From Octopus sinensis (taxonomy: Eukaryota), in assembly GCF_006345805.1 (NCBI RefSeq), contig NC_043004.1, positions 104,222,001-104,286,000 of the forward strand: a stretch of DNA of 64,000 bases, given 5' to 3'. Positions 11,560 to 48,250 of the stretch are shown one piece after another (the first letter of the stretch is position 1; every line of letters begins with the position of its first letter). The position numbers and the translations under genes were made by a program. The notes below the pieces were generated by a model, which had not been told where the DNA came from, did not search any database, and saw only the letters and a list, made by a program, of their open reading frames with translations.

Positions 11560-11728
11560 CACGTACACAACACAAGAATACGATTTAAATGAAAAATTTA
11601 ATGTCTGTACAAGTAATAAATATATAATTTTTCCAATAGAAAAATTAGATGGATTAAAACCTCCAATTATGTACAGTAGTCTTGCATCATAATAGTTGCA
11701 GCACCTGTCATTTGAGTTAATATGTACA
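11560..11728 (-). promoter_or_regulatory. jun 3' UTR end: two Pumilio elements, UGUA, ATTAAA poly(A) signal and GU-rich downstream element
   Basis: Minus strand TGTACATA at 11721-11728 and 11668-11675, TGTACA 11606-11611, ATTAAA 11597-11602, followed by TTCTTGTGTTGTGT. Confidence 0.55.
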
Positions 11729-12483
11729 GAGTTTATCAAAATTTACAAAATTTGTCGTTAGACAGAGCAAGTTCATGAATGCGATTCGTATACAAAACGT
11801 TTTGGGCTTTTTTAGAACTGTTTCAACATTATTAGCTGATCAACAGCTATGAATGTTGAGGAACAGTGTTACACAGTCAAGATCAGGAGTGTATAAGTTT
11901 TCAACCTGCAAAATATCACATCAGAAGATCTGTTTTGTTTCATTACGTTTTGTACCATCAATTCATAAGAGCACTTACTGGATGTAAGGAACACTCTGCT
12001 CCATGGTTCTTCTGCAAACCTCACCATTCTCGAATCAGGATACAAAATAAAAAGCTGGTGGTTAATAATTTGCTTCAGTTAAAAAGTCCTAAACTTAAAT
12101 GCAAAATGTAAATTTTGTTTCTTTTGTTGACTTTCTTTGTGGATGTTTTTTTTTTCTTTTTTGCAGTAATTTTTAGAAATAAGGGAAGATCTTGAGACAA
12201 ATTTAAAGTTAAGGCAAAAATACCTACTTCCCCCTTCAGTTTTCCCATCAACACTCAGTATCAACAAATACATTTAGGGATCGTTTTATCCAAGTTTGAG
12301 TCTAATACTTTTTTTTTCTCCAAATATTTTGCATAAAAAGGAAAGGAAGGTTAAAACGAATCCTGATGTTTGTGTTTAGGATACTTCTTAGAAAAAAGCG
12401 CATTTTATAACTAGTTTCCCAATCAGGAGGTAAGCATTGATTTTTTTTTCCATTTTTTTTCTCTTCAGTAAAGTTTCTTACAT

Positions 12484-13365
12484 TTAGATTATTAAATGGG
12501 GATGTGTATGAAGTATCCGACAACCATTATTTACGTGTTCGATAATTTGTTGTTTAAGTTTGCAAATGTCATCCCTGAGTGTTGTAGTCATTTGGGACAG
12601 TTCTGTATTCTGGTCCTTCAGATCTTTAACTCGATCTTCCAGTCTCGCGATGCGCTCTAGCTTTCGCGTCCGGCACTTTCGGGCAGCGATTCGGTTCCTG
12701 GCACGCTTTCGTTCTAATTTAATTCGCTCCTGTGATTCCATATTAATAGGAGAGAGCGGAGGTGTACTTCCTAAACATGGTACTGTTTGGGGTTCCTCTT
12801 TAAGTTTCACTATACCAGATTCTTCGTTTGTGTTCACTGTAGAATGATTGGATGGTGGTAGGGTAGTAGAAATGGACTGATGGGCGGACACGAGATTTGA
12901 CTGGGTATTTGTTGACCCGCGGGCATTCAGGAGGGTAGAATCGGTAGCGGTTATACTGTTCATTAAATTCCCTGGAGTATTAAGACTTTCGCTGGACGTT
13001 TGTGTGTAAGGAAAATTTGGTAAATTATACAAAGTATCTTCTCCATAGCTTTTGTGTAATTTGGCTAAGGCATCTACAAATCCCCGAGCGTAAGCTTCTT
13101 GTTCTTCTGTTACGAATTTTGGACAGAGAATTTGTGTTGGTGTTGGAGTTGTAGTGACCATTCCATTAGCCTGAATTATCATCCGTTCCAACTCCGGAGA
13201 TGCTAGTTTTAAAAGGTTTAGATCGGGTGACTGAAGAGGGTTATTAAGTTTTGCGGATTTTGCACTGCTACCGCCTGGAGTAAAGTCCAGAGTCATAGAC
13301 TTTTTAAGTCTTTTAAGCGACTCATTGCTTGGATGACACTCGTCGTGGTAAAACGTCGGTTCCAT
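12484..13365 (-). CDS. jun: Jun (AP-1 bZIP transcription factor), intronless, 293 aa
   Basis: Contains MEPTFY N-terminus, delta/JNK-docking [26 protein letters not shown] (S63/S73 equivalents), TTTPTPT (T91/T93), [23 protein letters not shown] motif, TPPLSP Fbw7 degron, basic region [17 protein letters not shown] and leucine zipper ending HVNNGC. Confidence 0.98.
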
Positions 13366-13582
13366 CTCTGTGCCTTTATTTTTTTTCTTTCCAGCAAACC
13401 TTATTTATATTATAAGCGCGGAAGTTTGCGACAGAGAAATCTGTAATAATGTAATCCGTAGAAGTGAAAGACGATAAAATGTAAAGATGGTCCTCTCTTT
13501 AGTTTTCTCGAAGTGTTCGTGAAGCTGTAGAGATATTTTCAGTTTTATTTTCACGATCCTTCCGATACTATTTCAAAATGTG

Positions 13583-13720
13583 ATCTGAGTCCAAACACTT
13601 CTTCTGACGCCCTTTATTCGAATGAGTCATCTGCTAAAAATAAAATGACATCACCAGGAAGGCTTCTGATTGGCTGACGATGACATCATTTACTATGTTC
13701 TGTAGTCGACGCTGATTGGC
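13583..13720 (-). promoter_or_regulatory. jun proximal promoter: Inr-like TCAGAT, TATA-like AATAAA, AP-1, MEF2, two TGACATCA (jun1-type), two CCAAT boxes
   Basis: Plus-strand positions: atctga 13583-13588, tttatt 13613-13618, TGAGTCA 13623-13629, CTAAAAATAA 13634-13643, TGACATCA 13646-13653 and 13681-13688, ATTGG 13669-13673 and 13715-13719. No minus-strand ATG between 13586 and the start codon. Confidence 0.75.
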
Positions 13721-13810
13721 GGGCTTTTTTTAAACGTGCACCATTTAGATGCAACGACCATGGGAAAAGTTGTGGTCCTACGTCGGCGAAGTAACTGCGT
13801 AGTACGTTTT

Positions 13811-13820
13811 CCTTATATGG
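13811..13820. promoter_or_regulatory. CArG box (SRF site) upstream of jun
   Basis: CCTTATATGG matches CC(A/T)6GG, about 230 bp upstream of the inferred TSS. Confidence 0.6.
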
Positions 13821-16074
13821 AGTATCAGCCTCTCCACATGGTGTCTCGCTGGCCAAGGTGCGAGAGACGTACTCGCTGAACCGCAACTTGCTATCAACTT
13901 GTAGTAGTCCTCCTTCCACCCCAGTTTAAAGTAAATAAATGAGTGAGTGAGAAAGAGAGGGGGATAAAGAGTTAGACAGACAGACAGAGAGAGAGAGAGA
14001 GAGAAGGCAGCAGTGTCTGCTCTACCTTTCGCTTCAGCTTCGATCTAAAACGACATTCAACCACTTAACAATTATTCCATTAAAGTATGAAAACTCAGTT
14101 TCTTTAAGTCGACAACAGCTGCCTCTCGTTAATATCCTTCACTCTGGCTACAGTTAGCAGCCATGTGTTGGCATTCCTGTTCATTCCCTGGCACCATGTC
14201 TCTTCTAAAGACAGACGGACAGGTCTCCGTCGGCCGCCACTGCTATTTCTTCTGTTCCCTTCAATGTTTGTTACCCACTGCTGCTAAACTTGCCGTTTTA
14301 GTTCTGTTTGTTTGTCGGGAGGACCGTCGTTGTTTCATGAGGATCTGTTTATTCTATGGGTACGAGAGAGAGTTCTCGATACATCGGCCGGTGGTTGTTG
14401 TTGCTGTTGTTGTTATATTACTGGGTAGGTTTTTTTGTGTGTATTGTTGTTTGAACCCCAGCACTCACCCTTAACGAGTATTTACCAGCCATTGAGACAA
14501 TCCCCTCTTATTTCGGATATGTAACCACCGCGCAATCTGTCCTGTAATTTTGATATGACAGTAGGGTGTGATTTGAGAGGAACTTGGTTGCTATTTCTAA
14601 CACGTCAAGTAACCACGTAAAAAAAGAAAGACGCTCCCTCATTGAATAATGTTGAGGTAAGTTACCGGCCAGCCATCCTCGTGGCTCGGGTTTCAATTCC
14701 AGGTGAATGACGCCGCCTCACCTTTGTCGCTAATGCCCTTGGTGAAAGCATAAATGTCACATCACCTTGATTTTGTTTTTCCTTAAAACTTCATAAAAAA
14801 TACGCCGGAATTAATAAAGATGTACAGTAATTACTGTGGAGGAATTTTTTCTGCAATTTAATAGTTGTTTGTTTTTGAAGTAGGATTGTGTAGATATTGC
14901 GAAATGATTTCTATAGCTGTCAGGTGTTGTGACGTTTCTGTGACGGGTGGGTAGTTGGTATAGGGTAGATATGAGATTGTTTTGTTGTTGGGTAGGTGTT
15001 ATGAGATTGTTTCGTGGCAAAGAAGTTCATAGACTCGGGTACAGCGGGTGCGAGCGCACTTCCTGAATTTTTATTTATTTAATTATTTTTGGTGGGGGCA
15101 AGTAATGAAAACGCTCTCAAGATCCTCCTGAAAAACTGGGTTTGCACCTTCTAAGCAAATGTTTGTTCCCGCACTTACGAGGGGCACAGTGTGTTCTGTT
15201 GATGGTTGTAAAGTTGTAAAATTCACATATCACATCAAAAATTTTAATTAGAATCAGTACTTCAGCAGCTCCTGTTTCGTAATATTGAGCAGATGTGAGT
15301 TAAACTAGCTCCTGGATAAGACGCCAAACTATACGAAGGCTAACGTTCCTAGACGATTTATATATATATATGGTACTTACGCTCTGCGGCCAGGTAAATG
15401 AACTATGACATAAAGATTTGGAAAACAGACTTATGATCCCGTAGACCAATTCCTTATGCAATCTTTGAAAAAGTTTGTTTGCAAAAAAATTCAGATGCTG
15501 TGCTTTTCGGGTTCATCTGTGGGGTTCTTATCGATATTAGCGGGCGCTTGTAATATTTATATGTATGAATATATGCATACTGTATGTATATATAAATATA
15601 TATATATATGTAATTTTTTTATCTATTTATTTATATGCACACACACATGCATGTTTAGCTTAAGTGCAAACCACGAAACTCTCTGACCTTGAGTTACAGC
15701 TAAATAAAAAGACACAAACATACACGTGTGTGTGTGTGTGTTTGTTGATGTAAATAATACATATGTAAATGTGTGTGTGTATGTGTACATAAGGATATTT
15801 AAATATAAAAAGATATGTGTGTGTGAGAGAGAGTCTGTGTGTGTATTTGTTTCACACTATTTTACAACCAGTTTTGGTTTGTTTGTGACAGTGTAACGTA
15901 GCGGTTAGATAACGGGAACCGATCAAGCTTAAAATAATAAGTGCTGGGGATATATTTGATCGACTAAACTCTTCAAGTTACTGACTCACAAATGACTTAA
16001 ATAAATGTGTATGTTACACACACGCATTCATTATATATATATTATATATATATATATTATATATATATATATAA

Positions 16075-45369: not shown

Positions 45370-48250
45370 TGGTCTTAATTTTGCTAAGTGACAGAGGACA
45401 GCCGAAAACTGAGAGAAGTAGTGAAATCTGGCTTTTTTGTCATCAATGCATGTCCCAACAGCTATACAATCAAGGGTTTAGAAGGAAGGACTCATGTTTC
45501 ACTCTAAAAATCTAAGGGCTTTCTAAGGTTGCACGCTGTTTAATTTGCCTCCAATTTGGTATTCAAATAAGTCATGAATGGCTAAGGTCTGTTTGCGATG
45601 GTGATTTACAAACAATTCTTGTCCTGCTGTAGAAAGGTGTTATTGCTTCAATTAGTTAGTTAGTTAGTTAGTTAGTTAATTTGGCTCAAAAGCAAATAGC
45701 AAGGAAATGTAGGGGGACATGGAGTTAAGTACAGGGTGGTGTTCATGTAAAGAGTTCAGGCCACTTGAGGTCAAGGGAGGCTTTGAACAAAGCGGTCGTC
45801 GGCATCTTCACCATCTCGTCTGGCAGCTTGTTCCACGGATCCGCAACCCGGACGGAGAAAGCTCCTCTCCTTCGATTGAGATGAAATCGTCGCAGGTAGA
45901 GCTTTTCGGAATGACCCCGCAGGCGATGCTCTGGAGGAGGAGTGAAGAACAGCTCTTTCGAGAGGTTACACTTTCTGCTTATGATGTTGTGAGCGAGAAT
46001 GAGATCACCACGGCGTCGTCGTTTTTCTAGAGAATAAAGGTCGAGCGTCCTCAGCCTTTCTTCATAAGACAAATTTTTGAGACCATGAACTATGCGGGTA
46101 GCCAGCTTCTGGACTCTTTCGAGATGCTGTATGTCTTTGAGGAGATAAGGAGAAGAGGCTTGAATCCCGTACTCCAATATGGGTCTCACCAGCGTGACAT
46201 AGAGTGGTAGGAATATGGCTGCTGTGAGCATTCCAAATGACCGTCGAATCAAGAACAGAATTCCGCGTGCTTTGTTGGTGGCATGGACGCACTGGGCCGA
46301 AGGCGAAAAGGAGGAATCCACCAAGATACCCAGGTCCTTTACCTGATCGGTCCTCTCCAGCAGCAGACGACCCGGCTCGAAATCAAGTTGAGTTGCAGGA
46401 GGAGAGCCAACAGGCAGATGACAGCACTTTGACATGTTCAGACACAGGTCCCATTTGTTAGACCACTTCCAAATTTGGTGGAGGCATCGACGAAGATCCT
46501 CTATATCACCGCGAGGAGCGACCAGTTTGATATCGTCGGCAAATAGAAGGGTGTGTTGCGTGAGGTCGTCGGGCAAGTCATTTATGAAGACTAAGAACAA
46601 TAAGGGCCCAAGCACTGAACCCTGAGGCACGCCACTGCTCACACTGGAGACGTCGGACCGCGAACCATTAACTTGGACTTGGAAGGAGCGATCTGAGAGG
46701 AAGGCACCAACCCATCGTACAATATCCGGATGGAAACTATATGCTTGAAGCTTGACAAGTAATAGGCGGTGGTTTACCGAGTCAAAAGCTTTGGCAAAGT
46801 CCAATAAAACGATGTCAACAGCATCACTATCATCGAGGATGTGCGTCACCAATTCTTCCATTACCAATTACTTCAATGTCAGGTGTTATATTTCTACTGC
46901 TTCTTTTACACATTGTAGCAAGCCACCCGGTGATCTCAAATGAGCTTTCTGATAATAGAGAAGAATATATCCTCAAAAGTACAACTTTGATCCAGCGAGA
47001 ACTTATAACTTATGAAAGCAATAATCAGAGAGGATAAACCTGTTATTAGAGACTTTTGGAAGAAGTTCAACATAATGGGTGCTGCCTCTTAGGATTAAAT
47101 GAAACCCTCAACTTTGAATTATGCTTTGAAAAATATATGGCCGGACTGTACCTGTGACTTTACAAGTTTTCCACAAGTGAAAATTCAACATCAAATTCAG
47201 GAGATATTGTGACATTTACAAATTGTGTAGCATTTGAAGAGGATGATATGGTTGAATTGCTAGTGTCCCATAGAACAAGTTTATCTGACAAGGAGCTGAT
47301 GCTATTTGAACAAGAGCAGTCTGAGAATACAGAAATTCCACCAACTTCCACTTAAATTGAGCTCCTTTTGAGTGTTGGGCCTCATGGAGGCAATGACTGA
47401 GACCTTTGGCATTATGTCATGCTTGAGAAGAAGACCCATCAAGCCAAGCAAAATAGCAGTCATGGCAGATACTGGTGGCTTGTAAAAGCACCCATTACAC
47501 TCTCGGAGTGGTTGGCATTAGGAATGGCATCCAAATCATGCCAAATCAGACTGGAACCTGGTACAGCCGTCAAGTGTGCCAGCCCAGTTAAACAGTCTAA
47601 CCCATGCCAGCATGGGCAATGGACATTAAATATTGATGATGATTCACTTAGATTGACTGCAAAGAAAATTGCTAAAGGGTTGGCATAGATGAAGGGTTCT
47701 GCAAGGTTTTGCTTAAAGCAGCCCTAATTGCAAACATAACATGAAAATTACAAGAGAAGTTTATAATGTGCTCAGTTTCCTCACAGAGTTGTATAAAGAG
47801 AGGATGTGCCATAAATATCAAGCAATTTTTTAATAAGTTCTTTATCCCTCAGGTAGACGTTGATGATGATGAACCATAAGATAGAAGATAGAACCCTCAT
47901 CCTCCCAGTACCTCTCATTCCCCCACCACCCCTTACACAGTCAATTTCTTTAGTGGTAAGAACATATCCTGTTATGGTGTTATGGTTCTTATTTATTTCC
48001 TAACATATTTCTCTTCAAATGTTTCTGTATACATAATTGTCCAGTGTGTGTTTAGAAATTGATGTGGTTGTGTTGCTTGTCTTTTTTTATTGTTAATGTT
48101 GTTTCACAAAAAATTAAAAAAATAAAAATCTATTGGAACGCATTATTACTTTGTAATATGAAAATCAAGGCAAAAGGAATTTTGTCTTCCAGAATTTCAT
48201 ATTACAAGTTTTTCAGAAGTCTATTACTCATGTAATGTGGGGGATTTCCT
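45370..48250 (+). mobile_element. Decayed Tigger/pogo-like DNA transposon, interrupted by the CR1 and a short repeat
   Basis: Degenerate translations FHSKNLRAF..LPPIWYSNK before the CR1, and RDFWKKFNI, KNIWPDC, EEDDMVELLVSHRTSLSDKELMLFEQE after it, resembling Tigger/CENP-B DDE motifs. Many stops. Confidence 0.6.
45653..46866 (-). mobile_element. CR1-clade LINE, 5'-truncated, open RT/C-terminal ORF (45743-46867)
   Basis: Motifs DFAKAFDSV, SGVPQGSVLGPLLF, LFADD, LVRPILEY, LERVQ, YEERL..L.L.SLE.RR.RGDLI, WNKLP. (AACT)n tail. Probable TSD ATTGCTTCAAT 45642-45652 / ATTACTTCAAT 46867-46877. Confidence 0.93.

Follow-up and report, generated by a model that had tools for sequence, protein, structure and literature searches.

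The jun gene and its upstream motifs

The window, i.e. the whole 64-kb (64,000-nt) stretch of Octopus sinensis DNA that was analysed, carries on its minus strand an intronless jun gene preceded by a series of short motifs (Table 1). The encoded protein belongs to the Jun family, having a Jun N-terminal domain and a C-terminal bZIP domain: Pfam PF03957 (Jun) was matched with 118.8 bits (E = 4e-34) and PF00170 (bZIP_1) with 58.8 bits (E = 6e-16), both above the cut-off. It showed 73% identity to Jun of Sepia esculenta, to which it was sister in a tree built by a quick method alone and having a backbone mostly without resolution. When 42 candidates in the octopus genome were scored, the bZIP end gave a single match. 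In a close relative, one RNA contig spanned 11668-13018 of the gene without a joint. Contigs from four runs stopped at 11579-11686, a weak hint of the 3' end, and ATTAAA at 11602 together with ATTTA sites was present in the likely 3' UTR.

Table 1 Features of the jun locus in the window.
Feature	Position	Strand	Basis
Likely 3' UTR of jun, ending below ATTAAA at 11602	11579-12483	-	Contig ends, ATTAAA, ATTTA sites
jun coding sequence, 293 aa, intronless	12484-13365	-	ORF and Pfam domains
Predicted ATG-free 5' leader, 221 nt	13366-13586	-	ATG scan
Predicted start region TCAGAT, A at 13586	13583-13588	-	Position, 32 nt below TATA slot
TATA slot AATAAAGGGC, degenerate AATAAAG	13609-13618	-	4 nt past AP-1 site
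AP-1 site TGACTCA, core element 4	13623-13629	-	Motif search
MEF2-type site TTATTTTTAG, core element 3	13634-13643	-	Motif search
CRE-like/jun1-type octamer TGATGTCA, core element 2	13646-13653	-	Reverse complement of mammalian jun1
CCAAT box GCCAATCAG, NF-Y type, core element 1	13666-13674	-	Motif search
Second CRE-like octamer TGATGTCA	13681-13688	-	Starts 15 nt above core CCAAT
Upstream CCAAT box GCCAATCAG	13712-13720	-	Motif search
CArG box CCATATAAGG, SRF type, variable upstream element	13811-13820	-	Motif search

An earlier note on this DNA had read the region as a jun promoter resembling that of vertebrate c-jun. The motif search, with consensus patterns for CArG, MEF2, AP-1 and CRE that we take to be the accepted ones, placed all the motifs listed there as described, on the minus strand upstream of the intronless gene. 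The octamer TGATGTCA occurred three times in the window, twice in the jun promoter. A grammar was taken from the window, consisting of an exact CCAAT, 15 nt, a CRE-like octamer, a MEF2 site, and an AP-1 site. The jun copy had 0 mismatches to this core grammar, and the next best of the 92 CCAAT sites in the window had 7. The octamer-to-MEF2 gap in the window was 2 nt. A CT microsatellite (13926-14013) lies just above the promoter, and a dispersed repeat matched by many unrelated contigs is located at 14552-14600. Elsewhere in the window, a 372-aa ORF on the minus strand (45743-46861) resembled a LINE-type reverse transcriptase, as judged by eye.

Between 13620 and the jun start codon (13365) there was no ATG; therefore, transcription from 13586 would give a 221-nt ATG-free leader, in agreement with the AUG-free leader of about 220 nt described earlier. 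The start at 13586 and the "Inr" are positional predictions. An RNA contig of a relative covered 13375-13570, beginning at 13570, although contigs cannot show starts. Own-species contigs (X4, X6, and X12; library type unrecorded) ran from approximately 11580-11690 (11027 for X4) to the CT repeat at 13926, spanning both gene and promoter, and listed no differences in 13583-13820, which confirms the sequence. Since they pass through the promoter into 13926, they fit DNA-type libraries or upstream transcription and back no start at 13586. Contigs X17, X18, and X19 stopped short of the leader, and X23 matched a repeat only.

Comparison of jun upstream regions

Loci for comparison were picked by Jun protein similarity in metagenome contigs, not by motif. 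The Jun alignment scan comprised at least 80 loci of the 91 confirmed. Those having the Jun N-terminus and no less than 366 nt of DNA above the ATG were kept and near-identical ones were collapsed, which gave 20 loci. Transcript-like or short contigs (approximately 340 nt or less upstream), C-terminal fragments, and duplicates were left out, the duplicates being L021, L023, and L024 (of L022), L054, L056, and L057 (of L053), L059 and L061 (of L060), L079 (of L076), and L066 (of L071). The fish-like loci L033 and L048 had less than 300 nt above the ORF start, and the set is thus without a vertebrate promoter. All available upstream DNA was scanned, with 400 dinucleotide shuffles per locus as the null.

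The module was present with five or fewer mismatches in 13 of the 20 distinct loci and with two or fewer in ten (upstream scan with tolerated gaps of 0-12 and 2-7 nt, which were fixed after the loci had been inspected). In each of the 13 loci, 0 of 400 shuffles equalled the module score. The best score in DNA downstream of the ATG was 8 or worse, and that on the opposite strand was 9 or worse except in L007 (5). The recurring core can be written as CCAAT–15 nt–CRE-like–2 to 5 nt–MEF2–3 to 6 nt–AP-1-like–TATA. It was always on the jun strand, with the core CCAAT 148-370 nt above the ATG, or 977 nt in the ant. Octamer starts were offset by +20 from CCAAT in 12 of the 20 loci within 500 nt of the ATG, with another at -977 in the ant locus; an offset of -15 was found in seven of the 20, and any other offset at most once. 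The CRE-to-MEF2 gap was 2-5 nt in 12 of the 13 module loci and 11 nt in the echinoderm L040. The MEF2 slot of the homologous modules was occupied by CTATTTTTAG or close variants, and the octamer appeared as TGACGTCA, TGATGTCA, TGACATCA, TGATGTAA, or TTATGTCA. By eye, some loci, that of the ant among them, have a second CCAAT upstream, at a distance that was not fixed.

The AP-1 slot, 3-6 nt past MEF2, was exact in four of the 13 modules, had one mismatch (TTA(C/G)TCA) in seven, and was absent in two. The idea that the AP-1 site had been added in the cephalopod is thus not supported, as an AP-1 or one-mismatch site follows MEF2 in 11 of the 13 loci, including those of the ant and the echinoderm. 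A TATA-like box lay 2-6 nt past the AP-1 slot in 11 of the 13 module loci, where the window has GAATAAAG; its recurrence in the same slot supports the earlier TATA assignment and a start near 13586. The non-canonical TATA is not a common trait: the degenerate GAATAAAG is peculiar to the window among the compared loci, and most invertebrates have a canonical box.

The module loci represent about nine lineages, the named ones being bivalves, an annelid, an ant, and an echinoderm, and several loci share clades. L007 and L009 were venerid-like bivalves grouping with Mercenaria and Cyclina, L010 clustered at 90% with Jun of the siboglinid annelid Ridgeia, and L022 was identical to Jun of an attine ant. 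L040 was an echinoderm, its top named matches being sea urchins, sea stars, and crinoids (61-68%), with hemichordates at 55-58%. Of L018, L028, the clade of L030, L047, and L053, L070/L071, and L076, most were spiralian-like. Order and spacing were kept in the bivalves, the annelid, the ant, and the echinoderm, which supports the conservation across protostomes and deuterostomes proposed in the earlier note, more strongly than claimed there; the deuterostome side consists of one locus (L040) and printed mammalian primers. A local alignment of the window core with L040 gave z = 10.3, and 26 of 30 nt of the CRE-CCAAT block (13689-13660) were identical. The ant module had two mismatches; because 977 nt and four ATGs separate it from the ATG, we infer its link to the start.

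The module was incomplete in L043, L051, L060, and L065. The first three keep parts of it (12, 19, and 21 of 400 shuffles, respectively), and L065 has MEF2 and AP-1-like sites past a longer spacer (by eye). In the grammar scan, the module was absent upstream of jun in L063, L075, and the anthozoan L077. L030, L043, L047, L051, L053, and L060 formed one jun clade, seemingly with several paralogues in each animal; here the module is degraded to differing degrees and the CArG box is mostly retained. In L018, a CCAAT–15 nt–octamer–MEF2-like unit was found in tandem, at -208 and -148 within the 300 nt above the ATG. The jun genes of L053, L065, L075, L076, and L079 matched in two parts set apart from each other, suggesting an intron within the coding region of these genes, unlike the intronless gene of the window.

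The CArG box is real in the window, as the earlier note had it, but lies outside the fixed core. An exact CArG was found in six of 15 other loci, against 0.27 expected from shuffles, and five of these six were in one clade; its distance above the core CCAAT was 73-104 nt in these loci versus 147 nt in the window. Other sites were also enriched in the 250 nt above the core CCAAT: NF-kB-like sites in nine of 15 loci (2.0 expected) and CACGTG (E-box) sites in seven of 15 (0.9 expected), neither of which occurs in the window, and further CRE-like sites in 14 of 15 (1.05 expected). This enrichment was seen in L007, L009, L028, L030, L040, L043, L047, L053, and L076.

Genomic background and mammalian c-jun

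In the 2.72-Gb octopus genome, the loose module pattern had ten copies versus 11 for a reversed-pattern control. With the AP-1 site included, only the jun copy had 0 mismatches; the other nine had 2-6, and a chance copy with two mismatches lies elsewhere in this genome (L084). CCAAT-octamer pairs numbered 333. Spacers of 11-19 nt were evenly used among the first 100, probably mostly non-promoter DNA, and the 15-nt spacer occurred in ten of them, where a flat spread would give about 11. This even use indicates that the 15-nt spacing is not a general feature of the octopus genome, and a general NF-Y/CRE spacing rule was not supported by these 100 pairs. The pattern had 0 matches in the prokaryote genomes scanned. 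Three near-identical matches on viral contigs, without jun nearby, were taken as chance.

Matches to a MEF2 exon and to NF-YA are also present in the octopus genome, the latter on two chromosomes and one small contig. The MADS box (PF00319) gave nine matches, on C9, C4, C1794, C2502, and C10832 (four on C1794, two with stops), more than one SRF and one MEF2 would give. These presumably include an SRF-like MADS box.

The mammalian c-jun promoter has an Sp1 GC box and a distal jun2 site. The GC box GGGCGG was not found in 13366-14400; both sites are outside the conserved core. A jun2-like TTACCTCA at 14660 was rejected, since it occurred in 0 of the 20 other loci. With the mammalian CAAT box at about -91/-87 and jun1 at about -71/-64, the spacer would again be 15 nt. 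Furthermore, as in the window, a jun1-type octamer is followed by MEF2 upstream of jun: mammalian primers in print contain the jun1 octamer and, after a gap of 4 nt, seven bases from the beginning of the MEF2 site (PMC3392945, PMC5706420, PMC2441799, PMC5563843), the gap in the window being 2 nt. According to published work, p38 induces c-jun through the AP-1-like and MEF2 sites (PMC2628930), and the gene is described as being induced through its AP-1 and MEF2 sites with autoregulation (PMC2628930, PMC6514070).

Several differences from mammals were also observed. The octamer is TGACATCA in mammalian c-jun and the inverted TGATGTCA in the window, whereas that of L047 has the mammalian orientation and those of L070/L071 are the full palindrome TGACGTCA. 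A single change separates TGATGTCA from this palindrome, and likewise TGACATCA, so that decay of an ancestral CRE on one strand or the other would be a simple inference. In invertebrates, a distinct AP-1-like site lies past MEF2 and often a second octamer above CCAAT, unlike in mammalian c-jun, and some invertebrate lineages have a CArG box. The mammalian c-jun grammar claimed in the earlier note is thus borne out for the jun1-MEF2 adjacency seen in the printed primers, but the octamer is inverted and the same CCAAT spacing in vertebrates is presumptive.

Proposed origin, working, and significance of the module

The preservation of order and spacing in molluscs, an annelid, an ant, and an echinoderm favours descent over convergence, and the module has very probably been inherited by descent among invertebrate bilaterians. 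Its homology to the mammalian promoter, in which the 15-nt spacer is presumed, is also probable. We consider it rather likely that the module confers signal-inducible function through NF-Y, ATF-Jun, MEF2, and AP-1 factors, as an analogy with c-jun suggests. Considered as a whole, a conserved jun promoter module working as in mammalian c-jun is the best explanation, and we hold it with good confidence.

By this analogy, NF-Y on the CCAAT box would keep the promoter open, and a Jun/ATF2- or CREB-type dimer would bind exactly 15 nt on, with MEF2 directly beside it. The fixed start-to-start distance of 20 nt, about two helical turns, would likely place NF-Y and the bZIP dimer along the same side of the helix. 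The dimer and MEF2 may be pre-bound and activated through phosphorylation by JNK, p38, or ERK5, after which new Jun/Fos would bind the AP-1 site beside the TATA slot and feed back on jun. The CArG box may add a lineage-variable SRF input.

The module might instead be inherited but read differently, for steady high expression, for a tissue-specific immune or wound response, or by other factors (CREB, ATF4, or C/EBP at the octamer; Maf or CNC at TTA(C/G)TCA). The five octamer variants among the loci and the TTA variant in seven of the 13 AP-1 slots would fit such a reading, as would the NF-kB-like (9/15) and E-box (7/15) sites enriched above the core in other animals. We nevertheless regard it as unlikely, because it is through the jun1 and MEF2 sites that kinases are described to induce mammalian c-jun (PMC2628930, PMC6514070) and the insect jun gene (jra) is described as activity-induced (PMC6514070).

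Convergence would mean that jun genes under selection for fast induction gathered common motifs, the protein geometry forcing the spacing, or that an old invertebrate module bears a separate mammalian likeness. The motifs are all short and common, the octamer orientation is unlike that of mammals, the vertebrate CCAAT spacing is presumed to match, and the anthozoan and some spiralian loci are without the module. However, the four elements share a single order, a single strand, and narrow gaps across about nine lineages, the bases between the motifs are also common to the echinoderm (the 26 of 30 above), and the 15-nt spacer is not preferred among the genome-wide pairs (first 100 of 333), so that convergence seems quite improbable. 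A chance cluster of short motifs without a promoter role would agree with the control-level frequency of the loose pattern (10 vs 11), but its probability is negligible given the recurrence above jun in 13 of 20 loci, each with 0 of 400 shuffles.

The conserved jun promoter module can be compared with a known class of bilaterian-conserved regulatory elements, namely Bicore1/2 of Clarke et al. 2012 (PMC3410860) and the 25 segments of Frith and Ni 2023 (PMC10735318). The known elements, 12 of the 25 being promoters, include many with CCAAT boxes; the 25 segments are located at developmental genes, and none is reported in fly, roundworm, or leech (PMC10735318). As in these elements, short sites are kept in order, orientation, and spacing beside orthologous genes in protostomes and deuterostomes: the jun module keeps all three in the cephalopod, bivalves, annelid, ant, and one echinoderm, on the same strand beside orthologous jun. 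It differs in lying at an immediate-early gene and in being kept in an insect (the ant). Neither main text (PMC3410860, PMC10735318) nor the text of the Frith and Ni supplement contains the word "jun", and passages of PMC13317027 and PMC5728398 say nothing of it. In the open-licence PMC and bioRxiv literature, no description of an invertebrate jun promoter module was found. Taken together, these comparisons suggest that the jun module is likely a new bilaterian-conserved regulatory element, one that stands out by the kind of gene it accompanies and by occurring in an insect.

In its most far-reaching form, the proposal would be that a core of NF-Y, ATF-Jun, MEF2, AP-1, and TATA sites at fixed spacing is about 600 million years old, homologous from octopods and ants to mammals, and functionally interchangeable between phyla. 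It would then rank as the first element at an immediate-early gene to be conserved across bilaterians, and would serve invertebrates that lack genetic tools as a portable reporter of stress or neuronal activity. All this we put forward tentatively, with somewhat more doubt than trust. The predicted use of the module as a neuronal-activity reporter, taken by itself, is possible but decidedly doubtful. A 250-bp fragment suits reporter work across species, and an activity reporter for cephalopods could come of it. Regulatory DNA is rarely conserved between protostomes and deuterostomes, and the spacing here is conserved though the spacer sequence has diverged, a situation that alignment-based surveys can miss. 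The jun grammar would extend this class to the immediate-early response, and, if true, the kinase-to-MEF2/ATF/AP-1 wiring of jun would be as old as the bilaterians.
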